Positions 2,141-57,879 of a stretch of 64,000 bases of DNA are shown one piece after another. Position 1 is the stretch's first letter. Every line of letters begins with the position of its first letter. The stretch is from Candidatus Omnitrophota bacterium (GTDB lineage: Bacteria; Omnitrophota; Gorgyraeia; Gygaellales; Profunditerraquicolaceae), in contig JAUYBI010000068.1 in NCBI GenBank assembly GCA_030693145.1, positions 16,374 to 80,373 on the forward strand. The letters are read 5' to 3'. Position numbers and translations under genes: made by a program. The notes beneath the pieces were generated by a model. It saw only the letters and a list, made by a program, of their open reading frames with translations, was not told the origin of the DNA and searched no databases.

Positions 2141-4183
<2,043 letters not shown>

Positions 4184-5854: not shown

Positions 5855-5865
5855 ATTAAAAACTA

Positions 5866-5922
5866 GGGGACGGTTCTGTTTTTCCGAATCCAATTTTAGA
5901 AAAACAGAACCGTCCCCATGAT
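5866..5922 (-). terminator. Intrinsic terminator hairpin after the 5923..7125 gene
   Basis: Perfect 18-bp stem ggggacggttctgttttt / aaaaacagaaccgtcccc with a 16-nt loop. It is followed on the minus-strand RNA by a U-rich tract (uaguuuuua). Confidence 0.6.
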
Positions 5923-7142: not shown

Positions 7143-7217
7143 AAGGTTTGCTAACTTTTATTAGTTATCAATTACAGTAGGGGAGGTTTAAACCTCCCCT
7201 ACTGTAAAAAGTCAACT
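7143..7217. repeat. Repeat family A, copy 1: long palindromic element with a GTAG-palindrome core agtaggggagg-tttaaa-cctcccctact
   Basis: Near-identical to the elements at 41502-41600 and 53925-54030. Its right arm supplies the last codons (VDFLQ*) of queH. Confidence 0.8.
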
Positions 7218-33084: not shown

Positions 33085-33097
33085 CGTGATTTCTCCT

Positions 33098-33170
33098 GTC
33101 ATTCCCGCAAAAACGGGAATCTATTTTTTTTCTAGATCCCCACTTTCGTGGGGATGACGCTTCGCGTCAC
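33098..33170. repeat. Repeat family C copy: double hairpin gtcattcccgc-aaaaa-gcgggaatc ... gatccccac-tttc-gtggggatgac
   Basis: Same architecture as 51376-51424 and 51894-51952. It encodes the odd C-terminal tail ([12 protein letters not shown]) of the clpP ORF. Confidence 0.8.
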
Positions 33171-41501: not shown

Positions 41502-41600
41502 CTATAATAAACTCTGCTGACTTTTATTAACAATAGTGGGGTGGGTTTAAACCCACCCTACTATTGAAAGTCAACAAGGTTTATTACACTGTCATTTGAT
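41502..41600. repeat. Repeat family A, copy 2 (aactctgctgacttttattaa ... tagtggggtggg-tttaaa-cccaccctacta ... ttgaaagtcaacaaggtttattacactg)
   Basis: About 95-nt match to 53925-54030 in the same orientation. The stem has compensatory substitutions relative to copies 1 and 3. Confidence 0.85.
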
Positions 41601-42695: not shown

Positions 42696-45600
42696 TTATT
42701 TAAATTCAAACCAGCTCTGCACAACAGGTTTCTTATTCTGGTCTTCAATCAACTTTTTATTAATTTCCATGGCCGCTTTTAACTCTTCAGACTTATTCTT
42801 AATGTAAGTTATATCATTATTTTTATCTTTGGAAACTTCATAAAGTTTTTCAAGGTTAATCCCTTTTGTCCCGCCGATATCCTCAATCTGCTTGCTTATC
42901 GCCTCCAGCTGTTTAAAAGCGCTGGCCAGATCATCTACCGCGTTCTTGGTATCTCCGAGTTTACCGGCAATATCTTTACTAATCTTAGTCAATAGTTTAT
43001 CCATATCATTAAACTGTAAACCTATTGTTTCAGCAACATTCTTTAATCCGCTTATACCGGAGGTTGAACCTAAAACCGCAGAAACCTGCCCGGAAACATC
43101 CTCTAAATTAGATTGAGTCACCGTCATCACCAAAGCATCAACAGTACCATTGGTAGACTCGGAACAAATCACAGTAAAAGTGCCTAAGCCCCAACTGGCT
43201 AAAAATGTAACATTATATTCATAAATACCTGCAGCGCCTATCTCTGTCATTCCTTTGTTTGAAAGAAGCAGGACGTCCTTAGGGCTGTAAATGTTTAAAA
43301 CAGGAGCTAAGCCGGTAACAGTACGGTAACGTATGGTCATCTTTCCACCCTGTTTAATCGTCGTTTCGCTGTTAAGAATCCCCGAGGTTATATGCGGCTT
43401 AATCTTGGTAGCAATGTTATCCGTTATCGCTGTTTGTGCTGTGGTTATCTGCGCAGGTATGGCGGTAGTAGTAGTTAAAATCTGCCCTGCTTGAGCACTT
43501 ACTTGCGCAACCTTTGCCTGAGTAGCCGCAGCCGTAGACTCTATTTTCGACGTCAGTTGCGACCTGGTAAGAGCCCCTTCAGAGGCAACCGAAGCCGCAA
43601 TCTGCCCGGCCAGAGTATTTAAAGTTGACATTACCGAGATAGTAAAATCATTGGCCGCCGAATACGTGACATTCGTTGATAAATCGACTCCGCCGTAGAG
43701 AATAGTCATTTTGGCAAAATAATTCCTGCCCCTGACAAAACCCTTTGCCGCTACGGCATTATCAATATTAAAATAATAATTGCTGTTTGCATCAGTCACA
43801 GCCAATGAAGCGGTATATTTAGGATTAACCGCGTCGGAACTATCGAAGATCTTCAAAGTGCTGGTTTTTAGAGTATTTATGTCATCGCTGGTAATCTGCT
43901 TACCTCTTTTCTCCAGCCGCACCAAGCCAGTTATCCGGTCATTAGCTTCATCGTAGACAAAGTTACTTAATACTTTGTAATCCGCCAGAGATTCAGCAGT
44001 GGACATAAGAAACACGGTCCAGCTAATATTATTGTCGTACGCGCCATCAACCGCATCCGCGGAGACATTCGCAGTCTTATCAACTGTACTCTCTACGTAT
44101 GCGGTTTTATTAAAATTAAAACTATAATTTCCGTAAGGCAAATTAAACGAAAATGGGCTATTACCGATTATCGGGTTGGTAAGGCCGGTGACTAATTGTC
44201 CGGTGTTTGAATCAATAATCTTAAGCGTAAGTTCGGTCAATGGGCTGCCATTTACCGAATCAAATGCTTTCATTGTAATCGCATATTTTTCTACTACGGT
44301 TACATTATTAGATGCGCCGCTGGCGGTAACTCCAGCGGCAGTGGCATTTAAGGTAACTATCCCCGGATAAACTGCGCAATACACCGCAAGATTATCAAAA
44401 GTCGCTATACCGGATACCGTTGCCACTTGAGCAGTTGCTCCCGCTCTCAAAGTGCCTCCAGTAGGGGCAACCGTTAGATTAATTGCGCTGGGAGCGATAT
44501 TTCCATAAGTATCAACTACACTCACTTTAAACGAAGACCACGGCGCGTTAGCCACCACTGTAGCCACCGGTTGAGTATTCCAAGAAAGTTTACTTGCAGC
44601 GCCGCCGGTAACTACCACAGCTAAGGCATCTGCATCTGGAGTGGTAATTACAGCATCTGAGGTCTTTGTTTTAATAGCCGCGCTTTCAGCTTTATATAAC
44701 TTCATCGTTATAGTCGAAATGCTCTGCCCTGAGGTAAAATTCACCAGCGTAATATTTCCAAATGCTATATCTACCGCCGAATAGTTTGTGCAAGTAGGAT
44801 TATAAGTAGTGCCTCCGCTTGTCGCGGAATTGGCGCCGCTAAAGATTATCTCTTTTACACCGCTATAGTCCGTGTCTAGGTTATTGTTGATATCTGTTGC
44901 TTTAGTAGTTACAGTGCTGCTTGCTCCGGCAGCCACAATAGCGCTGTCTCCGCTAACCATAAATTTAGTAACTGTTACATCAACAACCAAAGAACTGGTT
45001 ATTGCGCCGGCAGCGGCAAATGCTGAACCGGGAGAATCTACGGTAAGGTTAGCAGTGGGGTTAACGCTAAAAGCAATGGCCTTTCCGTCTGCTCCCACAG
45101 GCAAAGTTTGATTGAGGTAAACGCTTAAAGTGTAAGTCTTGCTTTGCCCATCAGGCACAGAAGAAATTATGCTGGTGCCGGTTCCAAAAGTTAAAGCGTC
45201 ATTTGTGATTGTGCCCATTATCGAAGTGGTGCCGTCGGATATGGCGGCTCCGGCAATATAACTCTGCCAACCGCCGGTGGTATCCGTGGCAGTGTTTCTG
45301 GCAATTACAATCTGTTTAAGCTTTGTCGCGTATCCGTCTGAACCGGCATCAGTAACCTTAAAATCAAAAACCTGCAACTTCGCCGCATCAGTATAGATTA
45401 AGGAAGATATACTGGTTGGTTTGACTAACGGGCCGGTTGCGATGGCAGTATCCGCGCCAACCTTAAAGGTTATCTGATAAGAATATATATCCGGCGCCAG
45501 ATTTCCCATTGAATGCGCCTTTAAATATATGCTTTCCGGATAACTATATTTTATCCCGCTAAAAGTTGCCACGCCGTTTACTAGAACCACTGCTAGAGAA

Positions 45601-48600
45601 TCACCGCTTAATGTTCCGTTGGTAACTGGAGTATAAGTTCCGCTGGTAAGCGAAGGAAGCAAGCTAATCTGGTCAGAAACTGAGGTAACCGCATTACCAT
45701 ACTGATCAGCCACATTAACTTTTGGCTGCGCGGGTAAAGCAATATTGGTAAAAGGATTTGTAGAGGGTTGTTGAGAAAACCAGAGTTTGCCCATCGCTGC
45801 TGCTTGCATAGTAATTGAATTAGAAGCGATATTTGCTCCCGTTAAATCAGCAGCGTTTGCCGTAATCGTAGTAGATTGAGCGCGATACAAAGTAACGCTC
45901 AAAGCCGCTGACACACCGTTAGTAAAACTAACCGGGTTAGTTGGCCAGAGATCGGTCGCGGAGCCGTCAGGGGCATTGGTTAAGCCGCTTAAAACATAGC
46001 TGATAGTTTTACTTCCGGTGTAGGCTGCGCCTCCGTTTGCTCCGTCACATAAGTTATTATATAAATCCACGGCATTTAACGCCCCTAAACTAATAGCGGT
46101 GCCAACTGTAGCTCCATTAACCGTTCCGGAAAATTTCAAATGGTCTGCCGTATTATGTTTAACCACAAATCCCAAGGCCTGGGCATTAGATGTAGTCACC
46201 GGCAGAGCACTTGTCTTAATCAACACACTCTCTGCCTTATATAATTTTAAAGTAGCAGTAGCTGCGCCATTGGTAAAAGTAAGCAAAGTATCCGCGCCAA
46301 AATTTATATCATTACTAAGATTATTTGAAGAGGTTGGCGAATTACTTGAAGGCGCAAGTGATGCATTGGCTCCGGAAAATACTATTGCCACATCGCTATT
46401 TAAATTTGTCTTTACGTTATCATATGCATCATAAGCAGTAATCGTAATCGGCCGGGAACTACCTGCAGTCAATGTGGTGGTTGAGCCGGTAATTGCAAAG
46501 TGGTCAAGGCCCGCGGCAAGAATATTTATAGACGCCGAAGATGAGCTCACGTTCAAACTATCACCTGCGCTGCGCGCTGCGGTAATAGCCGGAAGCCCGA
46601 TGGCAGTATCTTTGTAATAGAAAGCCGCGCTGCTTGCGCCTGAGGCTACCGTTATACTGCTAATGCTGATGGTGCCTGCGCTATCGCTATAAAAACTCCC
46701 GGTAGCAACGTTGCTGGTAAGAAGAAATGCAGTGGCGGTTACGGCATTTGTAAGATTATCATAGGAATCCTTGATTATCGCGGAAAACGCCGTAGAAACT
46801 ACTCCGGCGTTGCTTGAGCCCGGGCCGCTTAAGACTACTTTATAAGGAACTCCGGCTAAACCGGTAGCGGTAAAATTAACCGAGGTTAATCCGGCATAGC
46901 TTACCGTCACCACATAATCACCTGTTTTATTTCCTAGAGTAAGCACTGTTTGTGCCTGGCCATTTGCGTCAGTAGTAGCTGAAGTAACTGACAATACCTG
47001 GCCCGTTGCTCCGGTAGGAACGGAAGAAATTGCAAAAGTTACGGTTTCATTCGGGATAGCCACATTACCTGCGCCAACGAGTTTAACTACCAAGGGGTCA
47101 GTTAAAATAAGGGCAACTGTTTTAGACTGGCTATCTCCGCTGATTTTATTTAACGTTGAAGGCGTAACTGCTATGCTAGTAAAGGTTATTGGCGAGCCGG
47201 TAAGCCCGGTAGAAGTTGCTGTTACTTGATATTGGCCTGCAGTATTTCCTAAAGTAAGCGTGGTCTGTGCCTGGCCGCTTGCATCAGTGGTGGCTGAAGT
47301 AACCGACAATACCTGGCCGGTTGCTCCGCCAGGCACAGAGGAAATTGCAAAAGTTACGCTTGCGCCGGAAACCGCGTTGCCATAAGCATCTTTGACAGTT
47401 ACGACAAAGGGATTGGCTAAAGCAACAGAGACTTTTCCACTTTGGCTATCCCCGCTGGCAAGACTCATATTCGCAGCGCTGGCAGAAGGCGCAGTTACGG
47501 TTACTGTCAGAGGAAATACCGCATAACTCTGCCCTACTTCGGAAACGGAAAACGAAGCGGTTTCTGCCTTGTAAGCAGTCAAGGTAGCTCCATTTGCCAG
47601 AGATACACCGCCGGGAGAAATCGGAAAATTAATTGTTGTATTATAACCAAGGGTAACGCCATTCATCGCAGGATTATTACCACCTATACTAGCTAATCCT
47701 GAAAATATAAATGTATGATTATTGATGTAATCCTTATCAATATTTTTATTAGCGTCTGTTGCTCTCACCGTGAGATTTACCGGCGAACCAGCGGCAACAC
47801 TAATCGAGGAATTTCCGGTAGCTTGCCCTACAACCTCTAAGTAAGACACAACCACGGTAATTGTGCCGGTTACCGTAGTCACCTTACTGGTATTCGCGCT
47901 CATTTGCGTAGAAACCCCCGTATCGGTTCCTATGCCTGTTTCATTTATGCCAAATGTATAAGTTTGTCCTTCTGTGGCAGTCAGTTTTCCGGGTTTCATA
48001 TAGATATAAACTGTAAACTCGATAGCCGTATTATCGGCTATCGAATACAAATCCGCAATTGAGTTACTATTCGGGGTAATGCCAAAGGTAATTGTAGAAT
48101 TGGTAATTGCCGGCCCTGTGGCTGTAGCCACCTGAGTTGCTCCCTGATACAATCCCGCCCAGGCAATATCTGTCGCGGCATTGCCGCCGGTGCCGCCTAC
48201 GGTTAGCTGAATTCTATCAATCTGCGTCGGAACCGAATCTGTGCCTGTATCTTTAACCTTAAAACTTAATACCGCGAATTTATTCGCCAATTCGCTGTTG
48301 GTAGGAGCAAGGTTAAAATTAGTTACCGGCACAGCAGCTAACTCTACCGTAGAGTCGCTGGCAGTAGAAAAAGTAATCCCGGTGGAAAATACCGGCTGAA
48401 GAGTTCCGCTCTGGGCATAAAGATAGATTACTCCGGTAGTATTATACTTTACACCGCTGAAATTCGCCTGGCCGGCTATTGCTGAAAGAGGATTAGCGGC
48501 AGCCGCTAATGTCCCCGGAGCAGCAGTATAAACTGAATTAGATGTTGAGGCATAAAGCGTTATCGGGTCAGTATCAGTTGTCTGATTACCGTAAGCATCC

Positions 48601-50000
48601 TGGATAGCCACTATCGGCTGGCTAGCCAGAACATTATTTATTGCAGCAGTAGAAGGCGGCTGTTGTTTAAAAGCCAATTTTGCCTTTGTGCCGGGGTTAA
48701 CTGTAGTTGTTCCGGTGGCAGTAGATGGCGTCATTGTGTCTCCGGCGCTTCTGGTTGCGGTAATTGTGGGCGTGCCGGTTTTAGTATCTTTGTAGTAGAA
48801 GGTTGCGTTGCTTGTGCCTGCCCCGATGGTTACGCTGGTAATTGTCGTTGTGCCTGCTGCATCGCTATAAAAGGTAACTGTGCCGGTTGAGTTAGAAGAA
48901 AGCGAGAACGTCGTAGCTAAAGTAACATTGGCGCCGGTATTGCCATAAATATCCATACCAGTAATGGTAAAAGCGCCTGAAACAGTTCCGGCAATTACCG
49001 AAACCGAACTTGAAATACTTGCCCTAGAAGCAGCTGCAGCGTTAAAAGTTATGGGCAGGGATGTGCCGGTCATCGAAGTATATGTGGCAGTAACCGTAAC
49101 ATTTTCGGATTCAGTGTCGGTTAAGGTAACCGCAGCCGCGCCGTTAGTAAAATCCACTGCTGTTAAAGAGCTCTTGTTCAGAGCAGCAGAGTCAACCACG
49201 GTTCCTCCTGTTTCAGCTTTGGTTACACTTACGCTAGTGGCAGGACTATAAACAGTAATAGTATTGCCGGCTGAATCTTTGGCAGTAATCGTTACTGTCT
49301 GATTCTGGCCTGCAATTGCCTGATAAGTCGGATGCGTTACTAAAAAATAGTCGGTGTTAGCGCTACTTAGAAGGATATCGCCAGAGGCAAATGAAAAGTA
49401 TCCATCATAACTGCCTCCGGCAAAAAGAACACCTGCGCTTGAAATAATTTGGATTGTTTTATTATCTTTTATATAGCTTACGCCTGTATTATAAATATCC
49501 AATCCTAAATAATCTGCTGATGCGGCAGCGGTAAAGCTGGTAAAAGAAAGCCCTCCGACAGTAATATATTCGCTTGCTATAAAATTAGAGGTAACATTTA
49601 AGACTAATATTTGGCCTGAACCCTCATAAGTTACCACGGTGCTTACTTTAGCAGAAGCAGTGCCGCTAATGGTGGCAGTAGTTTTAGTGGTATCCCAGAG
49701 CATACCAAAGCCCGAGGGAATTCTTATCCTTAAATCGTTAATCGCAGTAATGGCTCCGCCGGTAGAATCAGTTATGGTTATGCTGGAGATAGCCGTAGAC
49801 GCCTGGCCAACTACAAAACTCTGATTAGCAGCAGCCGAAGAAATAGTTACGTTAGGCCCGCCAAGATTAAGGTCAACAGAGACGCCTGAGCCATAGCCGT
49901 CGTAACTGCCGCCGGTGTAGTCGGCAAAGGCAACGCCTACGCAGGCAAATAACAGCGCAACCGTCAGCACTACCTTATTCAGCGTATTAAACTTCATCAT
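42696..50000 (-). CDS. Giant (2434 aa) secreted surface protein with many bacterial Ig-like (Big_1/invasin-type) repeats and a C-terminal coiled-coil region
   Basis: Signal peptide MMKFNTLNKVVLTVALLFACVGVAFA. T/S/A/G-rich beta repeats including repeated GQVLSVTSATTDA(S/N)GQAQT(T/V)LTLGN units. The last ~300 aa are K/E-rich and heptad-like. RBS agaggtgg lies 5 nt before the ATG. Only a 12-nt gap separates it from the DGR RT stop. Confidence 0.8.
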   Translation of the reverse strand: MMKFNTLNKVVLTVALLFACVGVAFADYTGGSYDGYGSGVSVDLNLGGPNVTISSAAANQSFVVGQASTAISSITITDSTGGAITAINDLRIRIPSGFGMLWDTTKTTATISGTASAKVSTVVTYEGSGQILVLNVTSNFIASEYITVGGLSFTSFTAAASADYLGLDIYNTGVSYIKDNKTIQIISSAGVLFAGGSYDGYFSFASGDILLSSANTDYFLVTHPTYQAIAGQNQTVTITAKDSAGNTITVYSPATSVSVTKAETGGTVVDSAALNKSSLTAVDFTNGAAAVTLTDTESENVTVTATYTSMTGTSLPITFNAAAASRASISSSVSVIAGTVSGAFTITGMDIYGNTGANVTLATTFSLSSNSTGTVTFYSDAAGTTTITSVTIGAGTSNATFYYKDTKTGTPTITATRSAGDTMTPSTATGTTTVNPGTKAKLAFKQQPPSTAAINNVLASQPIVAIQDAYGNQTTDTDPITLYASTSNSVYTAAPGTLAAAANPLSAIAGQANFSGVKYNTTGVIYLYAQSGTLQPVFSTGITFSTASDSTVELAAVPVTNFNLAPTNSELANKFAVLSFKVKDTGTDSVPTQIDRIQLTVGGTGGNAATDIAWAGLYQGATQVATATGPAITNSTITFGITPNSNSIADLYSIADNTAIEFTVYIYMKPGKLTATEGQTYTFGINETGIGTDTGVSTQMSANTSKVTTVTGTITVVVSYLEVVGQATGNSSISVAAGSPVNLTVRATDANKNIDKDYINNHTFIFSGLASIGGNNPAMNGVTLGYNTTINFPISPGGVSLANGATLTAYKAETASFSVSEVGQSYAVFPLTVTVTAPSASAANMSLASGDSQSGKVSVALANPFVVTVKDAYGNAVSGASVTFAISSVPGGATGQVLSVTSATTDASGQAQTTLTLGNTAGQYQVTATSTGLTGSPITFTSIAVTPSTLNKISGDSQSKTVALILTDPLVVKLVGAGNVAIPNETVTFAISSVPTGATGQVLSVTSATTDANGQAQTVLTLGNKTGDYVVTVSYAGLTSVNFTATGLAGVPYKVVLSGPGSSNAGVVSTAFSAIIKDSYDNLTNAVTATAFLLTSNVATGSFYSDSAGTISISSITVASGASSAAFYYKDTAIGLPAITAARSAGDSLNVSSSSASINILAAGLDHFAITGSTTTLTAGSSRPITITAYDAYDNVKTNLNSDVAIVFSGANASLAPSSNSPTSSNNLSNDINFGADTLLTFTNGAATATLKLYKAESVLIKTSALPVTTSNAQALGFVVKHNTADHLKFSGTVNGATVGTAISLGALNAVDLYNNLCDGANGGAAYTGSKTISYVLSGLTNAPDGSATDLWPTNPVSFTNGVSAALSVTLYRAQSTTITANAADLTGANIASNSITMQAAAMGKLWFSQQPSTNPFTNIALPAQPKVNVADQYGNAVTSVSDQISLLPSLTSGTYTPVTNGTLSGDSLAVVLVNGVATFSGIKYSYPESIYLKAHSMGNLAPDIYSYQITFKVGADTAIATGPLVKPTSISSLIYTDAAKLQVFDFKVTDAGSDGYATKLKQIVIARNTATDTTGGWQSYIAGAAISDGTTSIMGTITNDALTFGTGTSIISSVPDGQSKTYTLSVYLNQTLPVGADGKAIAFSVNPTANLTVDSPGSAFAAAGAITSSLVVDVTVTKFMVSGDSAIVAAGASSTVTTKATDINNNLDTDYSGVKEIIFSGANSATSGGTTYNPTCTNYSAVDIAFGNITLVNFTSGQSISTITMKLYKAESAAIKTKTSDAVITTPDADALAVVVTGGAASKLSWNTQPVATVVANAPWSSFKVSVVDTYGNIAPSAINLTVAPTGGTLRAGATAQVATVSGIATFDNLAVYCAVYPGIVTLNATAAGVTASGASNNVTVVEKYAITMKAFDSVNGSPLTELTLKIIDSNTGQLVTGLTNPIIGNSPFSFNLPYGNYSFNFNKTAYVESTVDKTANVSADAVDGAYDNNISWTVFLMSTAESLADYKVLSNFVYDEANDRITGLVRLEKRGKQITSDDINTLKTSTLKIFDSSDAVNPKYTASLAVTDANSNYYFNIDNAVAAKGFVRGRNYFAKMTILYGGVDLSTNVTYSAANDFTISVMSTLNTLAGQIAASVASEGALTRSQLTSKIESTAAATQAKVAQVSAQAGQILTTTTAIPAQITTAQTAITDNIATKIKPHITSGILNSETTIKQGGKMTIRYRTVTGLAPVLNIYSPKDVLLLSNKGMTEIGAAGIYEYNVTFLASWGLGTFTVICSESTNGTVDALVMTVTQSNLEDVSGQVSAVLGSTSGISGLKNVAETIGLQFNDMDKLLTKISKDIAGKLGDTKNAVDDLASAFKQLEAISKQIEDIGGTKGINLEKLYEVSKDKNNDITYIKNKSEELKAAMEINKKLIEDQNKKPVVQSWFEFK
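46930..47370 (-). repeat. Near-identical intragenic tandem duplication of about 300 nt (two Big_1 units) inside the giant gene
   Basis: gaagtaactgacaatacctggcc ... ggaagaaattgcaaaagttacg recurs about 300 nt apart with few differences. Confidence 0.7.
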
Positions 50001-50012
50001 CCACCTCTGCAG

Positions 50013-51074
50013 TTAATTGGTTAATAAATTTTGCGCCAGATAACCGATACTGCTTTTTTTCCTGGCTAACTCCTTAAAGATACTTCTGCGTAAAGTTGCG
50101 GTGTTAGCGTATTTACTGTGCGCTGCCCAGCAACGCAGAGAGTCCCTGACCGCGGCCTTTGTAATTTTGCCGCTGGCAAATAAAAAGTCAAATTTATTGA
50201 GCTGTTTTTTAAAACGTTTCACATTATCGGAAGTAAGCCGGCGATACCCGGAGAACAGCCTAAAGCCCAAAAACTTTATGCCCTCAGACGCAGAATAAAT
50301 CTGCGATTTATCTTGGTGCAGTCGAAGCTCTAAACTGGCGTGCAAAAAATTTCTTATTCTTTCTTTAATCTCAACCAGCCTTATTTTTTCATTGCTAAAA
50401 ATTAAAAAATCATCCATATAGCGCAGATAATACCTTATTCTCAAATCAAATTTTATAAAATAATCCAATTCGTTTAAATAAAGGTTGGCAAAAAACTGGC
50501 TGGTGAGATTACCGATGGGTAAACCTACGCCTAACTGCAGACAGGCAGGCAATGACCTAGCCGAATCAACAATCTCATCCAAAAGCCAGAGGGCGTCTTT
50601 ATCCTCAATCCTCATTCTTAAAATCCCCTTAATGATCCGGTGGTTGATGGAAGGAAAATATTGTTTGATGTCGCCGTGAAAACAAAATTTATTCGCCCGT
50701 AAAAATCCCTGCGCCCTGTCCACCGCCTTATGCGTTCCCTTGTCTTTCCGGCAGGCGTAAGAATCGTAAATAAAAGTCTTATCGATTATCGGCTCAATAA
50801 CATCGTGCACCGCGTGATGCACAACCCTGTCCTTAAAAGGTGCTGCGGCGATATTGCGTTCTTTCGGGTCATAAATTTTAAATAAACGGTATTTCCCATG
50901 GCGATAGGTTTTGCGAAGCAATTCTTTATGCAGAAGGTCAATCTTTTCCTCAAGAAAAAAATTAAAATCCGCCGTTGAATCCCTGTATCGCCTGCCTTTT
51001 GAGGCCATAAAGGCCGAGTGATAAAGATTTTCTTTTGATATTATTTTAGGATAAATATTGTTTATCTTCACCAT
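50013..51074 (-). CDS. Diversity-generating retroelement (DGR) reverse transcriptase
   Basis: 353 aa. RT motifs include NIAAAPFKDRVVHHA, LPIGNLTSQFFANLYLNELD (the DGR-specific I/LGxxxSQ) and YLRYMDDFLIF (YxDD catalytic motif). Lies next to the TR/VR pair. Confidence 0.9.
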   Translation of the reverse strand: MVKINNIYPKIISKENLYHSAFMASKGRRYRDSTADFNFFLEEKIDLLHKELLRKTYRHGKYRLFKIYDPKERNIAAAPFKDRVVHHAVHDVIEPIIDKTFIYDSYACRKDKGTHKAVDRAQGFLRANKFCFHGDIKQYFPSINHRIIKGILRMRIEDKDALWLLDEIVDSARSLPACLQLGVGLPIGNLTSQFFANLYLNELDYFIKFDLRIRYYLRYMDDFLIFSNEKIRLVEIKERIRNFLHASLELRLHQDKSQIYSASEGIKFLGFRLFSGYRRLTSDNVKRFKKQLNKFDFLFASGKITKAAVRDSLRCWAAHSKYANTATLRRSIFKELARKKSSIGYLAQNLLTN

Positions 51075-51142
51075 ATTTTCCTCGTCATTGCGTTATAGTA
51101 GCGGACGTTTAAACGTCCGCTACTGGATTCGTGTAAAACTAA

Positions 51143-51270
51143 AGAGGTTTTGACGGCACGGCCGCCGTTATTGTTGTTCCGATTCGCATTCGTGTTCGCC
51201 GCGTTGTTGCGGTCAGAGGCGCGAGCGTTCGTCGCAGCATTGTTCCAATTGCCGCCGCGATTGCCAGCAC
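51143..51270 (-). repeat. DGR template repeat (TR), about 128 bp
   Basis: Matches the 3' end of the target gene (52008-52136). In my manual alignment all 17 differences are at TR positions that are A on the coding (minus) strand. It is AAC-codon rich on the coding strand. Confidence 0.85.
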
Positions 51271-51375
51271 AACACTTTTACGACGCTGAACCATTTTTTA
51301 AAACCATATCGGGTAGAAACTTACTTCACAACAGGCCTCCGCCCGATATTACTGCGTGTTTTCCCTCCACCTTGT

Positions 51376-51424
51376 GTCATTCCCGCGCATGCGGGAATCT
51401 GATCCCCGCTTTCGCGGGGATGAC
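51376..51424. repeat. Repeat family C copy between TR and avd (gtcattcccgcgcatgcgggaatct gatccccgctttcgcggggatgac)
   Basis: Double-hairpin architecture. The track ORF 51321..51596 is its spurious translation. Confidence 0.8.
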
Positions 51425-51516
51425 GTATAGCGGAGGATGGAAATAGCGTCTGAACCTCTCCAGTTCTAGTTCCGCTCCCGGGGTCCGTAGGCCGCGGGAT
51501 TCTGGAATATATGTCC

Positions 51517-51855
51517 TCAAAGAACAGACATCTTAAGCCAACCGCCAACCATTTTTCCGATTTCAATGGCTGATTGGCAGAAAAAATCATAAGCATTGAT
51601 ATTAACGTACTTCATATCTTTGGCGATTCGCATCATAAAACGTAAAACATCTAATTTCAGATTAATCTTTATTAAGATCTCTCTTTTCTGCTTGGAATAA
51701 TTGGCTTCGATCAGCATTTCCAATATATCCAGCAGGATCCTCTCGATCCTGTCTGCCAGTAAAAATTTCTGATCCTTGGGGAAATTTGCCATTTTGGGCA
51801 GCATCCAGAGGATCAATTTGTAATGCTTTTCCACTACCGGTGTTACTGTTTTCAT
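51517..51855 (-). CDS. avd: DGR accessory variability determinant (Avd-like)
   Basis: 112 aa, basic, predicted helical. Sits between target/VR and TR/RT as in canonical DGRs. The C-terminal IGKMVGGWLK resembles the end of Bordetella phage bAvd (recalled from memory). Confidence 0.7.
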   Translation of the reverse strand: MKTVTPVVEKHYKLILWMLPKMANFPKDQKFLLADRIERILLDILEMLIEANYSKQKREILIKINLKLDVLRFMMRIAKDMKYVNINAYDFFCQSAIEIGKMVGGWLKMSVL

Positions 51856-51875
51856 CTTACAGCCTCATTCCATCC

Positions 51876-51952
51876 GTCATTCCCGTGATCCCTGTCATTC
51901 CCGCGGAAGCGGGAATCTACTTCTTTTAGATCCCCACTTCCGTAGGGATAAC
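51876..51952. repeat. Repeat family C copies (one partial, one full) immediately downstream of the VR and upstream of the avd start
   Basis: gtcattcccgtgatccct then gtcattcccgcggaagcgggaatc ... gatccccacttccgtagggataac. Confidence 0.75.
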
Positions 51953-52001
51953 AACTTACAAATCCTCAAAAGAACAAATAACCAAAGTTCTACAAAACCT
52001 C

Positions 52002-53486
52002 TTATGGAGAGGTTCTGACGGCACGGCCGCCGTAATCGATGTCCCGACCCGCACTCGTGAACGCCGCGTAGTAGCGGTCAGAGGCGCGAGCGTACGTCGC
52101 AGCATTGCCCCAACTGCCGCCGCGATAGCCAGCACCAACCGCATCTGTAACAGGCCAATTAGTAACATTGGCATTTCCTGTTCCGTCTAACGCGCCGTCT
52201 CCATTTAAACCCGTAAAAGCCCTGCCTGTAGTATTCCCTACGGTAACCGGCCTCTCCCAGAGATTTCCGGAAAGTTCCATTACACCATAATAGCCTGCCC
52301 CACTGGTTACCCTTGTACTTGAACCAGTAGCGAATATACCGCATCTTAAAGGGCCTGTTCCCGCGTCCCCGCCGATAAAAGTTGTGTTATTATAAGCGCA
52401 ATTTGCCCCGGCGTTGGTAATTGTCTCGGTGCCGTTTTCTGCGCCGGATATGTCTCGAGCCGCGGTAATGCTTGTGCTCCCCCAGGCGTATTCATTGGGC
52501 GTAGAGACAGAATCTCCTCTGGCTGCCTTTTCAAATTCTAACTCTGTGAAAGGCCTTAAGGCCGCCCAATCAAAATAAGCGGTTACATCCGCCCAGGAAA
52601 TAAAATTGCACGCCCTGTCCGGACGGGACGCGGAATAATTCGGGTAGGTGCCGGAAATAGTATGGCGGTAAGTAGTTTGAGCCGGATATCTGGTTGTGGC
52701 TTGCGCTGAGGTAATGGTGTTTAAAAAATCCGCGTATTGGCCTTGGGAGATTTCGTATTTCATCATATAGAATGCCGCGTATCCTTTGGGGAATGCCACC
52801 GGGATTGGCCCGGCCTGGTCGCCGCCGTAAGTGCTTAACGCATAATAGAGATTACCGGCTGTTGTCCCTACGGTAATCTCGTTTTCTGAAGCTATTAAAT
52901 AGGCATTCGTGGTTGTGGGATAGGTATAGAATGCTGACGTCTCAGTTCCACCCGAACCTACATAGAAAGCGCTGGTAGGAATATAGACCATCTCTATGGC
53001 AAATACCTTTACCCGCACAGTACTTGTGCTGATAACGCCATCCGCGCCATAATCCCAAACAAATTGGATAGAACTTGTGGAAACGCTTCCTGCACCATTA
53101 GCCGAACGCTGCAGAAAAACGCCTTTTTTATCCGCGGGCACAATAATATCCAGAGCCGTACCTGAGCCCTGAGAAAAACCCGCAGGATTTGTACCTGAGG
53201 TTTTAAGCGTAGCGTGATTCCAACTTACTCCTGCGTTTGTGGAATATTTGATAAATACCCAGGCCGCGTCATAATTAGCAGCCGTTCTCCAGGAGTTATC
53301 CCAGGAAATATTAAACTGTACTGCTGCCGTCACTTGGCCTAAAGATACATTGCCTAGAGAAACAGTTGAAACGTTAAGATTATTCGCTTCTGCCTTATCT
53401 ATCAGAAGGCAAAAGACAAAAGACAAAAGACAAACAGAAAATAAAAACAAACAATATTTACATCCCTGCCGGCTATTTTTTTTCAT
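52002..53486 (-). CDS. DGR target protein: secreted/membrane-anchored protein with a C-terminal C-type-lectin/FGE-like fold carrying the variable region
   Basis: 494 aa. N-terminal hydrophobic leader. C-terminal motifs YMMKYEISQGQYADF, VMELSGNLWERP and YRGGSWGN are typical of DGR variable-protein CLec folds. The VR forms its last ~43 codons. Confidence 0.85.
   Translation of the reverse strand: MKKNSRQGCKYCLFLFSVCLLSFVFCLLIDKAEANNLNVSTVSLGNVSLGQVTAAVQFNISWDNSWRTAANYDAAWVFIKYSTNAGVSWNHATLKTSGTNPAGFSQGSGTALDIIVPADKKGVFLQRSANGAGSVSTSSIQFVWDYGADGVISTSTVRVKVFAIEMVYIPTSAFYVGSGGTETSAFYTYPTTTNAYLIASENEITVGTTAGNLYYALSTYGGDQAGPIPVAFPKGYAAFYMMKYEISQGQYADFLNTITSAQATTRYPAQTTYRHTISGTYPNYSASRPDRACNFISWADVTAYFDWAALRPFTELEFEKAARGDSVSTPNEYAWGSTSITAARDISGAENGTETITNAGANCAYNNTTFIGGDAGTGPLRCGIFATGSSTRVTSGAGYYGVMELSGNLWERPVTVGNTTGRAFTGLNGDGALDGTGNANVTNWPVTDAVGAGYRGGSWGNAATYARASDRYYAAFTSAGRDIDYGGRAVRTSP
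52008..52136 (-). repeat. DGR variable repeat (VR) with a GC-rich IMH-like 3' end (cggcggccgtgccgtc on the coding strand)
   Basis: Aligned with the TR at 51143-51270. Every substitution sits at a TR adenine on the coding strand. Confidence 0.85.
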
Positions 53487-53571
53487 CGCTACTTCCCTCC
53501 TTCTAATCTCTTAGAACTTATAAAATAAAACTCCACGACTTTACGGACGTGGAGTTACGCTGGATAATAAA

Positions 53572-53620
53572 AAAGCCCGAATTTCTAATGACTTAAGAAA
53601 TTCGGGCTTTTTTATCAGCC
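53572..53620. terminator. Bidirectional intrinsic terminator hairpin (aagcccgaatttct-N-agaaattcgggctt) flanked by A/T tracts
   Basis: 13-bp stem with T-runs on both sides. It separates the TA/RAYT region from the DGR target promoter region. Confidence 0.5.
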
Positions 53621-53657: not shown

Positions 53658-53712
<55 letters not shown>

Positions 53713-53924
53713 ATACCATTGTCTCCATTAAAAAATCCCCAGCAGGTTATGCCGGGGATAATTCCCTAAAAAACTTTTTTCACTTCGGCAGTCTGCCTTT
53801 CCGCTTTCGCGGAAGCATAACTTTGCGTCCTCCGATTACCCGGAGTTTGCCTTTTCGGTTCCATTCCTGCTTTTTCTATATATAAGTATAACATAAATTT
53901 TATTCCTTTCAAGCTCCGCACATT

Positions 53925-54030
53925 TTTGACATTATATTAAACTCTGCTGACTTTTATTAATTATCAATTATAGTAGGGGAGGTTTAAACCTCCCCTACTA
54001 TTAAAAGTCAACAAGGTTTGTTACACTGTA
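53925..54030. repeat. Repeat family A, copy 3 (aactctgctgacttttattaattatcaattatagtaggggaggtttaaacctcccctactattaaaagtcaacaaggtttgttacactg)
   Basis: Direct repeat of copy 2 (41502-41600). Together the two copies bracket the DGR plus giant-protein block. Confidence 0.85.
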
Positions 54031-54409: not shown

Positions 54410-54667
54410 TTACCTATAAACTTCTCTTCTATGATCAATTCTAATTATGCCGATATATTTTTCTGTCTTTGAAAAGGAATATATTACTCTGTAATCACCA
54501 ATGCGATATGCATAGCAACCCTTGAATTCTGCCTGTAAGGGTTTACCTATAAGGGGGTCGCTGGCAATATACTCTAATGCTGAAGCAACCCTTTCTTTAA
54601 GTTTTTTATCTTTGAGTTTTTGGAATTGACCTGAGGAGATATTCGAAAATCTGATAGGATAGCTCAT
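54410..54667 (-). CDS. relE: RelE/ParE-family type II toxin
   Basis: Short basic protein with YRVIY motif. Overlaps the antitoxin gene. The start is likely MSYPIRF (54667), not the track's upstream Met. Confidence 0.65.
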   Translation of the reverse strand: MSYPIRFSNISSGQFQKLKDKKLKERVASALEYIASDPLIGKPLQAEFKGCYAYRIGDYRVIYSFSKTEKYIGIIRIDHRREVYR

Positions 54668-54668
54668 A

Positions 54669-54938
54669 TTAATTTCTTTGCGGCCGGCCCACCACTTCTT
54701 TAAAGCTTTTAGTTTTACCAAGGCTTAATTCTCTTTTTGCCTTTCTAATTTCTCCCAAAGCTTTTCTATCAGACATTATTTCTAAAGTTTCAAGCCACCC
54801 TTCAAATTCATCAGCATTCATTACTACTGCTGCCGGCTTTCCCCGCTTAGTTATTATAAATCTTTCCAGCCTTTTGTCAGAGTTTCTAATCAGCTCTAAA
54901 AAATGCGCCTTTGCTTCGGTAACAGTTAATGTAGTCAT
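54669..54938 (-). CDS. yefM: Phd/YefM-family antitoxin
   Basis: 89 aa. N-terminal MTTLTVTEAKAHFLELI is typical of YefM. Immediately upstream of the toxin. Confidence 0.7.
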   Translation of the reverse strand: MTTLTVTEAKAHFLELIRNSDKRLERFIITKRGKPAAVVMNADEFEGWLETLEIMSDRKALGEIRKAKRELSLGKTKSFKEVVGRPQRN

Positions 54939-54950
54939 ATCTTTACCTCC

Positions 54951-55166
54951 CTAAATATTTCTCTTTTTACCATTTAAAGTATAAATCATAATTCTAAACT
55001 TGTCAAGGACAAAATGACTATTTTTATGACTATAAAGGAGATCATTCCTATCATCCGCAATGACATCGCCATTTTGGGCGCCCACGAGGGGCGCCCCTAC
55101 GATTGCGATCACACCATGCAAATGATTCGGTAATTCCGGGCACCATGCAGGTAATTCCGGGGACAC
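54951..55166 (-). pseudogene. Fragmentary duplicate of the RAYT/IS200-like transposase (HuH region only)
   Basis: An 88-bp segment (55051-55137) duplicates 55449-55536 within the intact gene. It encodes PNHLHGVIAIVGAPLVGAQNGDVIADDRND. Confidence 0.5.
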
Positions 55167-55198: not shown

Positions 55199-55822
55199 TC
55201 AAGTTTTTGTTTCTGAGGCATAATATTCATCCTCTTCCCATTTTACCGGATTATTAACGATATATTCCCGAATACGATTTAAATCGTTATCATTGCGGAT
55301 AACATGTTCATAATAATTGCGCTGCCAGAAATATTCGTCAAACGGTAACCAATTTTCATTTTTGACATTTCGAATATATTCATTTGTGGTAATTGATTTA
55401 AACGCGCCAATAATATCTCCCAACGTAGGGGCAACCCTCGTGGTTGCCCGATCATTCCTATCATCCGCAATGACATCGCCATTTTGGGCGCCCACGAGGG
55501 GCGCCCCTACGATTACGATCACACCATGCAAATGATTCGGCATTACGATAAATTCATCCAATTCAATAAATTGAAACCGTTGTTGCAATTTATTCCAGCT
55601 GTCTTCAACCATTATACCCACACCATTTAACATTATTTTCCCGCCATCAATATCACCAAATAAATTCCGGCGTTCATTTACGCATACCGTCACAAAATAA
55701 TACCCTGCCTGCGAATAATCATAACCCGCCAAACGAATCGACCTGCGATTCCTATTATCAAAACCTACGCGCATTATTTTTTCCAATTCACGTAGGGGCA
55801 ACCCTTGTGGTTGCCCCATCAC
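55199..55822 (-). mobile_element. IS200-like / REP-associated tyrosine transposase (RAYT, COG1943)
   Basis: 207 aa. RLAGYDYSQAGYYFVTVC N-motif, HuH motif MPNHLHGVI and a C-terminal catalytic Tyr region FWQRNYYEHVIR. GTAG-palindromes (gtaggggcaaccctygtggttgcccc) occur at its 5' end and internally. Confidence 0.8.
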
Positions 55823-55830
55823 CGTCCCCT

Positions 55831-57879
55831 TTATTTTAAAATCTCCTGCGCGGCCCCAAGCACATCCTCAACAGTGGTGGCTTTAAGACAAGCAAAATCT
55901 TTCTGGCAATTGTGCGCCAGGCAGGTAGTGCAACCTACGGTTTTATACAAAACCCTGTTCTTTTCTCCTAATGGGCCCCAGCGCCGCGGGCTCAGACCGG
56001 CTTGACTGCGCCCAAAAATCGCAATCACCGGTACACCTAAGGCTGAGGCCATATGTATCGGCCCGGAATCCGTAGAAATAAACAACCGGCATCTTCGTAA
56101 TAAGCTGGCTAACTGGCTAACGGAAGTCTTTCCCGCCAAGTTCAGCGCTTGGATGCGCATATTTTTAATCATCTCCTGGGCCTTTTGCATATCTTTCGGC
56201 CCGGAAACAACGATAACCTTAAAACCATGCTTCTGGGCAAGCCTATCCGCGGCTTGGGCAAATCTTTCCCCGGGCCAAATCTTGGAAGGACAGCTTGCCG
56301 CCGGATGAATTACCAGGAGCTGATCGCTATCCTTAATTCCGGTTTGGCTAAACAAATCATCCACCCATCTTTCAGATTCTTGTTTGATCGGCATAAATAA
56401 GGTTTCATCGACAGGCGCAATTCCCAAATACCTTATTAAATCCAAAGCATACTCTGATTCATGTTTTTGCCCATACTGTTTAGTATGTTTAATCCTATCG
56501 GTAAGCAGAAATCCAAATTTACGATCATAACCTAAGCGTTTAGGTATCCCGGCCAGAAAAGTTAGTAAATGCAGGCGGATAGTAGGATGTAAAACTATCG
56601 CCAAATCAAATTTCTTTTTCCTCAAGAACCAGGCGAACTTAAGCGCAGCCAGCCAACCCTTATTTTTTGCGTCTTTATCAAAAATTATTACTTCATCTAA
56701 ATCCGGATTACCCTCGAGCACATCTTTAGCGTAAGGAGAAACCAGCATACAGATATAACCTTGAGGGAATTTTTGCCTTAAAGCTTTAATCACCGGCGTA
56801 GATAAAAGCACATCCCCTAAGCGGTCAGTACGCGTAATAAGAATCCGGTGATATAAAATCCCGGGGACGGTTCTCTTTTTATCCTCTATACTCTGAAAAA
56901 AAGAACCGTCCCCTTTATTCGCAAGTAATGATTCGATCTGTCTGAGTACATCCGCCGGTTTAATCGCCTTTAAGCATGCCAAACTCCCGAAACGGCACTG
57001 GGCTTTTTCACAGGGCCGGCAGAAGATATCTTTCTTGACTACGGCGCTTCTTTCTGACCATGGGCCATATTTTTTTTCATCAGTAGGCCCGAAGATGGCC
57101 ACCACCGGCACATGCAAATAGCTGGCTAAGTGCATGGCCGCGCTATCATTAGTAATTAAAAGCTGCGAACTTTTAAGTAATTGCGCCAGTTGGCTAAGAT
57201 TAGTTTTAGCGCAAAGATTAATGATCTTTTGATCGCCAACAGTTTGAAGATAATTGCATACCGGCTGATCCAGCGGATCACCAACCAGGACAATCTGGTG
57301 GCCGGCCTTAACCAGCTGACAGCAAAGCTGGCTAAAATTTTGTTTATCCCAGCATTTAACCCGGCTTCTGGAGCCGGGCGCAATCACAATTAATTTAGCG
57401 CCATTGGCTAAATTCTGCCCGCTTAAAATGCCCCGGATATAATCAACATCCTGAGAAGTAATATTTAATGACTGATATTGTTTATTTTTCTTGGAATATT
57501 CGAAAAGATTAGCCCAAAAAAGATGTTTTTCCTTCATGTGTTTAATCTTGGAGGGAATCCGGCGCAAGGGGCTAAAAAACAGGCTTTTTTTTCTAACGGG
57601 CAGAAGGGCGCCAAAAAAACTATTGCGCAAATCCACCACCAGGTCGAAGTTTGCCTTGCTTAAAGCAAAAAACAATTTTAGCTTAGCGATTAACTTGGCG
57701 TGCTTATCAAAAATAATTACATCTTTGACTGCGGGATTATGCAGAAAGATTTCCTTCGGGCGCGGAGGCACCAGGCAGGTAATCGCCGCATCCGGATATT
57801 TTTGGCGCAAGAAATCCAGGACCGGTAGAGTTAAAATACAGTCACCGATATTGCTTAAGGTTATAAAAAGAATTTTCAT
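55831..57879 (-). CDS. Tandem double GT9 glycosyltransferase (two fused ADP-heptose:LPS heptosyltransferase modules)
   Basis: 682 aa. Two successive modules each start (K/R)ILxxxxxxxGD and carry the GT9 GPxD/SGPxHxA C-terminal motifs. Confidence 0.8.
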   Translation of the reverse strand: MKILFITLSNIGDCILTLPVLDFLRQKYPDAAITCLVPPRPKEIFLHNPAVKDVIIFDKHAKLIAKLKLFFALSKANFDLVVDLRNSFFGALLPVRKKSLFFSPLRRIPSKIKHMKEKHLFWANLFEYSKKNKQYQSLNITSQDVDYIRGILSGQNLANGAKLIVIAPGSRSRVKCWDKQNFSQLCCQLVKAGHQIVLVGDPLDQPVCNYLQTVGDQKIINLCAKTNLSQLAQLLKSSQLLITNDSAAMHLASYLHVPVVAIFGPTDEKKYGPWSERSAVVKKDIFCRPCEKAQCRFGSLACLKAIKPADVLRQIESLLANKGDGSFFQSIEDKKRTVPGILYHRILITRTDRLGDVLLSTPVIKALRQKFPQGYICMLVSPYAKDVLEGNPDLDEVIIFDKDAKNKGWLAALKFAWFLRKKKFDLAIVLHPTIRLHLLTFLAGIPKRLGYDRKFGFLLTDRIKHTKQYGQKHESEYALDLIRYLGIAPVDETLFMPIKQESERWVDDLFSQTGIKDSDQLLVIHPAASCPSKIWPGERFAQAADRLAQKHGFKVIVVSGPKDMQKAQEMIKNMRIQALNLAGKTSVSQLASLLRRCRLFISTDSGPIHMASALGVPVIAIFGRSQAGLSPRRWGPLGEKNRVLYKTVGCTTCLAHNCQKDFACLKATTVEDVLGAAQEILK

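Follow-up and report, generated by a model that had tools for sequence, protein, structure and literature searches.

The diversity-generating retroelement and its palindromic repeats

The 64-kb stretch of contig JAUYBI010000068.1 from a Candidatus Omnitrophota bacterium that was analysed here (in the following termed the window; coordinates refer to it unless a related locus, designated by an L number, is named) carries on its minus strand a complete diversity-generating retroelement (DGR) in the order target gene with variable repeat (VR), avd, template repeat (TR), and reverse transcriptase (RT) gene (see Table 1). The assignment is based on an RT gene beside a TR/VR pair, mismatches at TR adenines alone, the presence of Avd, and non-identical versions of the initiation of mutagenic homing sequence at the ends of VR (IMH) and TR (IMH*). 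The VR is located in the C-terminal FGE-sulfatase/C-type-lectin-like domain of the target protein, and the 128-nt TR/VR pair lies 68 nt away from the RT start; RT homologues reach 91% identity, the closest ones being named Candidatus Omnitrophota by their sources. The present analysis concerns the double-hairpin repeats on both sides of avd, which a preliminary description of this region had proposed to act as the hairpin or cruciform in DGR homing, and the RNA that is predicted to be encoded between avd and TR.

Table 1. Features of the DGR locus, of the palindromic repeats and of their surroundings (window coordinates; related loci with their own numbering at the end).
Feature	Position	Strand	Remarks
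DGR target gene, 494 aa	52002..53486	-	open reading frame; Pfam PF03781, E 3.3e-13
VR, 128 nt	52008..52135	-	87% identity to TR
GC-rich element and IMH, CGGCGGCCGTGCCGTCAGAACCTCT	52008..52032	-	fixed G at 52015; invariant in 7 related VRs
VR-end hairpin, AGAACCTCT-CCATA-AGAGGTTTT	51993..52017 (52017->51993)	-	overlaps IMH and stop codon 52002-52004
NTS-like doublet 1, VR-proximal, GTCATTCCCGCGGAAGCGGGAATC ... GATCCCCACTTCCGTAGGGATAAC	51894..51952	.	intact unit 51894-51917; degenerate inverted unit 51929-51952
Truncated NTS-like unit, GTCATTCCCGTGATCCCT	51876..51893	.	apparent remnant of a further copy
avd, 112 aa	51517..51855	-	Pfam bAvd, E 4e-20; NCBIfam DivGenRetAVD, 106.6 bits, cutoff 80
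Structured leader RNA (predicted)	51271..51516	-	RNAalifold, 12 loci
Helix P1	51470-51507
Primer-like strand, AACUGGAGAGGUU + linker CA	51451..51465	-	predicted to pair with TR 3' end, 51137-51149
Stop-like strand, GACGCU...CCAU	51437..51450	-	predicted to pair with AGCGUC 51282-51287 and AUGG 51291-51294, just before TR
Helix P2	arms 51432-51436 and 51364-51368
NTS-like doublet 2, GTCATTCCCGCGCATGCGGGAATC / GATCCCCGCTTTCGCGGGGATGAC	51376..51424	.	inserted in apical loop of leader helix P2
Helix P3	51306-51349
TR, 128 nt	51143..51270	-	IMH* 51143-51167, A at 51150
Family-B perfect palindrome, AGTAGCGGACGTTTAAACGTCCGCTACT	51097..51124	.	in TR-RT spacer; insertion versus relatives, absent in L001, L002, L007, L209
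DGR reverse transcriptase, 353 aa	50013..51074	-	Pfam RVT_1
NTS-like doublet 3	33098..33160	.	between aminotransferase gene and clpP, away from DGR
NTS consensus matches	51375-51402 and 51893-51920		3 mismatches each
Match to published degenerate SRM pattern	33097-33124
c-di-GMP-I riboswitch	53784-53861	-	65.8 bits, gathering score 35; upstream of DGR target gene
RAYT-like Y1 transposase gene	55199-55822	-	best NCBIfam match REP-associated tyrosine transposase, 67.9 bits, below cutoff 80
Truncated duplicate of middle part of RAYT-like gene	54951-55166	-	adjoins RAYT-like gene
Third inverted-repeat family, GGGGACGGTTCT(N)TTTTT / AAAAA(N)AGAACCGTCCCC	5849-5934, 56863-56913		one copy inside 682-aa open reading frame 55831-57879
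MutS_I-domain open reading frame in VR-avd spacer	L004 4923-5243; L087 1767-2141
PIN toxin pair in VR-avd spacer	L208 1976-2547		opposite strand
11-bp GC-rich hairpin in VR-avd spacer	L088 about 3230-3275
Hairpin GTCATCCTGAGG...CGAAGGATC in VR-avd spacer	L210 about 2755-2800		SRM-like by eye

All three non-coding spacers of the DGR (target-avd, avd-TR, and TR-RT) carry a palindromic insert. The repeats next to avd consist of a palindromic unit of approximately 24 nt, GTCAT(T/C)CCCGC-N4-GCGGG(A/G)ATC, that is paired with an inverted copy; both units of such a doublet represent one 24-nt palindrome in variant, mutually inverted forms, and the formation of either two hairpins or a single long one is possible. 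Three doublets and one remnant were found in the 64 kb, compared with none expected by chance (0 in 100 shuffles). Both sites reported in the preliminary description as double-hairpin elements are real, and the supposition that the repeats belong to a genome-wide family was borne out by the third copy at 33098-33160 as well as by the occurrences in other genomes (see below). The details required correction at the VR-proximal site: the second hairpin is degenerate (GTAGGGATAAC rather than GTGGGGAT(G)AC), the segment 51876-51893 is a separate truncated unit, and the doublet is not situated just 3' of the VR, as it begins 55 nt (its intact unit 90 nt) past the end of the VR/TR homology. The insertion at this site comprises about 105 nt and replaces the avd start region; according to the alignment, the upstream insertion has reshaped this part of the gene, which reads MKTV... 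in the window versus MESQKI.../MENKKI... in the relatives.

In the folding of the region around the VR end, which had been suggested as a check, the coding strand of the VR-proximal doublet preferred one 16-bp hairpin (51904-51942) over two, and a separate hairpin was found on the VR end itself. The doublets might be considered to act at the RNA level by processing, stabilising or attenuating the polycistronic transcript, e.g. by uncoupling the target mRNA from the avd-TR-RT RNA. REP-type hairpins stabilise upstream mRNA in enterobacteria, and the 16-bp hairpin of the transcribed strand uses G.U pairs that correspond to C.A mismatches on the other strand. Yet the coding-strand hairpin is not followed by a U-tract, the lone terminator-like match is located on the opposite strand, the second doublet resides within a leader helix and not between cistrons, and the relatives described below manage without doublets; a function of this kind appears quite improbable.

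VR/TR pair and the hairpin at the VR end

The mismatches between VR and TR are confined to TR adenines (17 of 17), and the same restriction applies to the relatives. The coding-strand VR ends with ...CGGCGGCCGTGCCGTCAGAACCTCT (52032->52008) and the TR with ...CGGCGGCCGTGCCGTCAAAACCTCT (51167->51143); the ends quoted in the preliminary description agree with the sequence in that the VR continues with AGAACCTCT and the TR with AAAACCTCT after a 16-nt stretch that contains 14 G/C, the only difference being a single G/A (VR 52015 G, TR 51150 A). In the comparison of seven related VR/TR pairs, adenine mutagenesis spanned TR columns 9-103, the last 25 nt (columns 104-128) were invariant, and column 121 was occupied by G in every VR and by A in every TR. 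Judged from this alignment, the G/A at column 121 is a fixed difference and not a mutagenised adenine; the interpretation of this final mismatch as an ordinary product of mutagenesis was rejected, since the VR base is G in all seven related VRs. Because of the invariance across seven pairs and the fixed column 121, the proposed IMH/IMH*-like nature of the GC-rich VR end is supported by comparison, beyond mere resemblance. In the subclade of L004 and L087, IMH and IMH* differ at three positions, non-adenines included.

The hairpin formed by the VR end, missing from the preliminary description, had a DNA folding energy of -6.5 kcal/mol (z -3.35), and the TR end is without a counterpart (z -1.33). 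It contains four G-C pairs among nine and a 5-nt loop (CCATA). Nine of the 12 loci possess this structure, which is kept in L001, L002, L006, L007, L086 and L209 and bulged in L088 and L208; it is absent in L004, L087 and L210, and no compensatory changes were detected across the 12 loci. The hairpins of phage DGRs have been characterised by a GC-rich stem of 7-10 bp, a 4-nt GRNA loop and a distance of 4-34 bp from the preceding VR (Guo et al. 2011, PMC3240598); neither the VR-end hairpin nor the NTS-like doublet fits this description. The premise that DGR homing needs a hairpin 3' of the IMH is itself weaker than had been stated: high-confidence GC-rich inverted repeats after the IMH were documented for 34% of DGRs only (PMC5758913), and according to a 2026 study the BPP-1 stem-loop is important, but not strictly required (PMC12875486).

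Identity and distribution of the double-hairpin repeats

Of the 28 positions of the Neisseria NTS consensus CGTCATTCCCGCGMAVGCGGGAATCYRG, 25 are shared by the repeat unit. NTS, the longer version of the dRS3 repeat, is cut in Neisseria as single-stranded DNA by SsnA, a GIY-YIG nuclease, and NTS-like "Ssn-related motifs" (SRM) are known from many phyla (PMC11893778). All three window units contain the GTC that precedes the palindrome and the C that follows it; both are decisive for the cleavage and binding of the motif by SsnA (Chenal et al. 2025, Nat Commun 16:2388, PMC11893778).

A scan for the exact doublet pattern, with one genome per species (stretches L089-L207), revealed at least 119 genome stretches with the doublet, which belong to many phyla; the matches listed span the candidate phyla radiation (CPR), Omnitrophota, Proteobacteria, Planctomycetota, Elusimicrobia, Gemmatimonas, Actinobacteria, and others. 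Among these listed matches, doublets were depleted in long open frames (37%, compared with 78% for positions taken at random). The outer parts GTCAT...CCC / GGG...ATGAC are constant, whereas the inner loops are highly variable (e.g. GATCCCCgatcaggtcGGGGATGAC, GATCCCCgggtcaagcccgaGGATGAC). Near-identical doublet forms occur in CPR, Omnitrophota, Vibrio, Devosia, Rhodoferax, and others, an indication of horizontal spread or of a mobilising enzyme in common. By their sequence, the doublets are members of the NTS/dRS3/SRM class of interspersed, mostly intergenic hairpin repeats.

Genomes with repeats of this class typically encode an Ssn nuclease (cd10448, GIY-YIG), often with the motif on its flanks. 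An Ssn-type nuclease might nick the units when they become single-stranded near the VR and thereby stimulate the integration of the cDNA or local recombination, in which case the repeats would modulate the DGR. The units have retained the nucleotides needed for SsnA binding and cleavage, a GIY-YIG open reading frame is encoded on the doublet-bearing Omnitrophota contig L090, and dRS3/NTS repeats cluster near variable genes in Neisseria. However, the window did not reveal an Ssn gene, and related DGRs are active in the absence of the units, so that a contribution of this type has to be regarded as extremely improbable.

Related cassettes without the repeats

Syntenic cassettes (target-avd-TR-RT-giant Big_1 protein) were fetched whose RT is 69-91% identical to that of the window. 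The target-avd spacer comprises approximately 46 nt and is free of doublets in L001, L002/L003, L006, L007, L086 and L209; an NTS-like unit was found in none of the first 88 loci, and the VR-proximal doublet was absent at that position from all relatives examined. The sole relative with units (in the GTCATCCCC form) is L208, which harbors them in the avd-TR leader at a site identical to that of the window, flanks included; in L006, an unrelated insert of about 90 nt occupies the site of the window doublet in the P2 loop.

Direct evidence of ongoing diversification is provided by the loci L002 and L003 (13,089 nt each, from different samples): They differ at 21 positions, all of which are located in the VR (5078-5205) and 20 of which correspond to TR adenines. 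This pair constitutes a clean natural snapshot of DGR activity; the DGR of L002/L003 diversifies actively without doublets, and its 46-nt target-avd spacer contains no GC-rich hairpin. In addition, the window and L208 share the doublet in the P2 loop, while each VR bears non-adenine substitutions of its own TR; homing consequently went on after the insertion into this loop. Contigs with other VRs were also sought via the exact RT and Avd proteins of the window, and none are on record.

The preliminary description suggested that the doublet downstream of the VR may be co-opted for homing, where it would replace a dedicated hairpin or cruciform. This reading fails because doublet-free relatives show VR diversification, the outcome that had been set in advance as its refutation. 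Some features are in its favor: the units possess an 8-bp GC-rich stem and a 4-nt loop, the sense-strand loop GGAA of the VR-proximal copy fits GRNA, and L088 and L210 also gained GC-rich hairpins in the VR-avd spacer. However, the unit with the GRNA loop is the degenerate one with a mismatched stem, its doublet starts 55 nt from the VR end and thus beyond the 4-34 bp of phage DGRs, the same doublet occurs between unrelated genes and in many phyla, and most relatives are devoid of the element, with diversification continuing without one in L002/L003. A co-opted homing structure is in our view very improbable.

The doublets are interpreted instead, with a probability of roughly 80%, as cross-phylum hairpin repeats that were inserted at tolerant sites of the DGR and are carried as passengers, not as a targeting structure. 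They would have been inserted in a REPIN/MITE-like manner at DGR sites that tolerate insertions: one in the target-avd spacer, in this lineage only and with a rebuilt avd start as the result, and a second in the apical loop of the variable P2 helix of the RNA leader, shared with L208; the second-family palindrome (family B, see below) would have entered the TR-RT spacer, likewise as a passenger. A composite mobile unit of the two doublets and avd was rejected, as avd is syntenic in relatives without doublets. Some points nevertheless limit this interpretation. GC-rich hairpins in the VR-avd spacer were gained independently in three of 12 lineages (window, L088, L210) and may be mildly beneficial rather than neutral, and the evidence of homing after an insertion relates to the P2-loop doublet, as the VR-proximal one occurs in the window alone. 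Neither a motif scan nor a Pfam search of the small open reading frames detected an ssnA/GIY-YIG gene in the 64 kb; the link of the units to an Ssn nuclease in this genome is therefore putative.

As a side observation, the VR-avd spacer acts as a hot spot for insertions in this clade, with MutS_I-domain open reading frames in two loci and a PIN toxin pair in another (see Table 1). The hairpins around avd fall into an already-described class of mobile repeats, which removes a tempting link to DGR targeting; the insertions show where a DGR cassette tolerates foreign sequence.

Predicted leader RNA between avd and TR

The spacer between avd and TR is strongly conserved within the clade. A repeat scan revealed that the segment 51462->51447 (TGGAGAGGTTCAGACG) agrees with the reverse complement of the VR end in 15 of its 16 nucleotides. 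RNAalifold analysis of leader and TR ends from 12 loci predicted a consensus structure with the following order of helices: a 5' hairpin (P1), the AACUGGAGAGGUU strand paired with the TR 3' end and its flank, the linker CA, and the GACGCU..CCAU strand paired with the segment preceding the TR; 3' of this stop-like strand, the short and variable hairpin P2 is followed by an A-rich single-stranded stretch and by P3, a long hairpin with interruptions. In this structure, 96.1% of the cells are paired, and 18 two-sided changes were counted, compared with 8.8 +/- 1.9 in shuffled alignments (0/500) and with at most seven when the partners were slid against each other. Helices 3, 4 and 5 are paired to 93.6-97.2% and include compensatory changes (CG->UA covariation at columns 64/293, helices 4 and 5). 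The minimum-free-energy fold of the native 376-nt window RNA reproduces the consensus helices, the doublet being stacked as an extension of P2; the doublets of the window and L208 as well as the 90-nt insert of L006 are all accommodated inside the P2 loop. The leader motif was recovered from all 13 close loci and from none of 78 distant DGR loci.

The primer-like strand, which is followed by a conserved A (51451), is more complementary to the VR than to the TR: the number of Watson-Crick pairs with the VR end is 10-12 (11 for the window), the VR-specific G and flank included and without wobbles, versus 9-11 Watson-Crick pairs with the TR end, to which two wobbles in most loci and mismatches beside the likely priming site are added. 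Between the two subclades, three positions are changed on both partners (GGAGAGGTTC/GAACCTCTCC versus GGGGAAGTCC/GGACTTCCCC). The duplex of this upstream strand with the TR end amounts to -14 to -25 kcal/mol, whereas downstream candidates reach only -10 to -16 kcal/mol at inconsistent positions. No Rfam family matched in 50900-52200, even at E<=1. A metagenome scan with the RT alignment yielded mostly DGRs of 40-46% identity, many with the TR downstream of the RT, and these distant DGRs exhibited neither a leader:TR-end signal nor the leader motif. Forty-six viral-contig matches to the leader 15-mer were dismissed as chance matches, none being in a leader-like context.

In the Bordetella phage BPP-1, Sp47-56 and TR117-129 form the template:primer duplex, and 2 nt further on Sp59-70 and avd369-379, upstream of the TR, form the "cPRT stop" duplex (bioRxiv 10.1101/2023.10.23.563531); the spacer (Sp) continues with a small stem-loop, adenosines that are left unpaired, a ring of single-stranded RNA, and finally a long stem-loop (bioRxiv 10.1101/2023.10.23.563531; Handa et al., NAR 2018, PMC6182149). 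In RNAs of the BPP-1 type, an internal adenosine of the spacer primes the cDNA. Recomputed from the BPP-1 sequence, Sp47-56 pairs at 10 of 10 positions with the IMH and at 7 of 10 with the IMH*. That the cDNA-linked RNA primer recognises the IMH was proposed for BPP-1 on the basis of this primer:IMH pairing (Naorem et al. 2017, PMC5703328); the pairing was therefore rejected as a new idea, and the present clade adds covariation support and a different layout to a principle that is already known.

Based on the anatomy of the locus and the published BPP-1 work, the following course of events is most likely. A transcript over avd, leader, TR and RT would fold such that AACUGGAGAGGUU pairs with the TR 3' end (IMH*) and GACGCU..CCAU with the pre-TR segment; these two duplexes would be equivalent to the template:primer and "cPRT stop" duplexes of BPP-1, circularly permuted to a position upstream of the TR. 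The cDNA would be primed near UUCA at the end of the primer strand, the TR copied with adenine errors, and synthesis halted at the pre-TR duplex. The RNA primer strand, still attached to the cDNA, would represent a complement of 10-12 nt (11 in the window) to the VR end including the VR-specific G, and would tether the cDNA to the IMH of the VR and not to the IMH* of the TR, as proposed for BPP-1. Hairpin P1 is a candidate protein-binding hairpin.

The competing explanation assigns the leader complementarity to a generic fold or to shared ancestry and places the real priming spacer downstream of the TR, where it would overlap the RT gene in a BPP-1-like arrangement; such a spacer-like RNA within the RT coding region is possible. 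The priming site at the leader and the permutation of the RNA were deduced by analogy rather than mapped, the covariation stems from 12 loci only, in about two or three subclades, and the z scores of the leader:TR RNAduplex are modest in L086, L087 and L088 (-1.6 to -2.1). A published survey confined to the 100 nt downstream of the TR moreover found its elements in 207 of 278 DGRs. Against a downstream spacer stand the covariation of both long-range leader helices, the succession of P1, primer, 2-nt linker, stop strand, hairpin, A-rich segment, long hairpin and pre-TR strand that equals the BPP-1 order after permutation, the weaker duplexes without conserved position downstream of the TR, and TR-RT spacers as short as 26-33 nt (range in the clade 26-90 nt); the predicted spacer-like element lies upstream of the TR instead of immediately downstream. 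We consider the downstream location doubtful. An upstream, permuted DGR RNA is probable in view of covariation and analogy; the complete proposal, namely the use of a circularly permuted RNA by this Omnitrophota clade of DGRs, with the spacer elements upstream of the TR and a primer complementary to the VR end, is rated as about evenly balanced. No description of such an upstream-spacer layout was found in the library that was searched.

How the cDNA of a DGR reaches its target is, according to current descriptions, not yet well understood. If the upstream priming RNA is true, the co-variation of primer and VR end would amount to a comparative test of the primer:IMH model that was proposed from a single phage, and to independent support from natural variation for the recognition of the IMH by a cDNA-linked RNA primer; surveys looking only downstream of the TR would miss DGRs of this layout, and the insertion-tolerant tip of P2 would offer a natural engineering site.

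Neighbouring genes and further repeats

A second family of palindromes (family B, (A)GTAGSGGASGTTTAAACSTCCSCTAC(T)) is represented by four copies at 7172-7207, 41531-41566, 51097-51124 and 53971-54000, in which compensatory changes preserve the palindrome and the ends GTAG...CTAC are typical of RAYT-type REPs. The RAYT-like open reading frame itself holds GC-rich palindromes (GTAGGGGCAACCC..GGTTGCCCC; GGGCGCCC..GGGGCGCCCCTAC). Together with the third inverted-repeat family (see Table 1), the genome of the window is rich in mobile palindromes. A ParE-type toxin/Phd-YefM antitoxin pair (54410-54938, minus strand) is situated between the DGR region and the RAYT-like gene.

The cyclic di-GMP (c-di-GMP-I) riboswitch upstream of the target gene is followed by a terminator-like hairpin (53735-53759) and is kept in three relatives (L001 1041-1118, L002 2506-2583, L004 3028-3105). 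Due to this conservation, c-di-GMP may control the diversified protein and perhaps the cassette; the riboswitch suggests a coupling of target gene expression to c-di-GMP signalling. Between riboswitch and target start, a perfect (GTCT)13.8 array is present at 53658-53712, which may be a phase-variable tract, and a strong 25-nt inverted repeat at 53562-53620; exact tandem repeats are likewise found upstream of the target in relatives (e.g. L001 1190-1279, L002 2660-2744, L087 1-99). Directly after the RT, a repetitive surface-type protein of 2434 amino acids is encoded (42696-50000, minus strand), with Big_1 matches in relatives; the synteny of this giant protein in most relatives suggests a functional link with the DGR locus.

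Comparison with known systems

The doublets share with the NTS/dRS3/SRM repeats the core GTCATTCCCGCG-N3-GCGGGAATC, the hairpin, the orientation with GTC before and C after the palindrome, the multicopy and mostly intergenic distribution, and the occurrence in distant phyla. In contrast to these repeats, they are arranged as inverted doublets with a spacer of 1-13 nt in a REPIN/MITE-like manner, and the partner unit is a GTCATCCCC...GGGGATC variant; the host is Omnitrophota-like, and ssnA was not found in the window. With the REP/REPIN elements and their RAYT (IS200-like Y1) transposases, they have in common the inverted palindromic pairs that form a long hairpin, the intergenic multicopy distribution, and a RAYT-like gene within the same window; however, the RAYT-like protein stays under the NCBIfam cutoff. 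Classical REPs bear a 5' GTAG tetranucleotide; in the window, GTAG is a feature of family B and not of the GTCAT doublets.

Regarding the target elements of BPP-1, the likeness consists of a GC-rich stretch that is followed by a short IMH with fixed VR/TR difference and of mutagenesis ending upstream of it; here the IMH past the GC-rich part comprises about 9 nt with one difference, in BPP-1 21 bp with five. Both systems possess a hairpin at the VR end and none at the TR, but that of BPP-1 has an 8-bp GC-rich stem and a GAAA loop and is situated 4-34 bp downstream, whereas the hairpin of the window overlaps the IMH, is not GC-rich, and has the 5-nt CCATA loop. As to the RNA, in both cases a single continuous strand is paired first with the TR 3' end and, after a gap of 2 nt, with the pre-TR segment; the subsequent elements, a small hairpin, a single-stranded A-rich stretch and a long hairpin with interruptions, come in the same order after permutation, and the primer strand pairs better with the IMH than with the IMH*. 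In contrast to BPP-1, in which the element is located between TR and RT, the whole element would lie between avd and TR in the Omnitrophota clade; it has no sequence similarity to the BPP-1 Sp.

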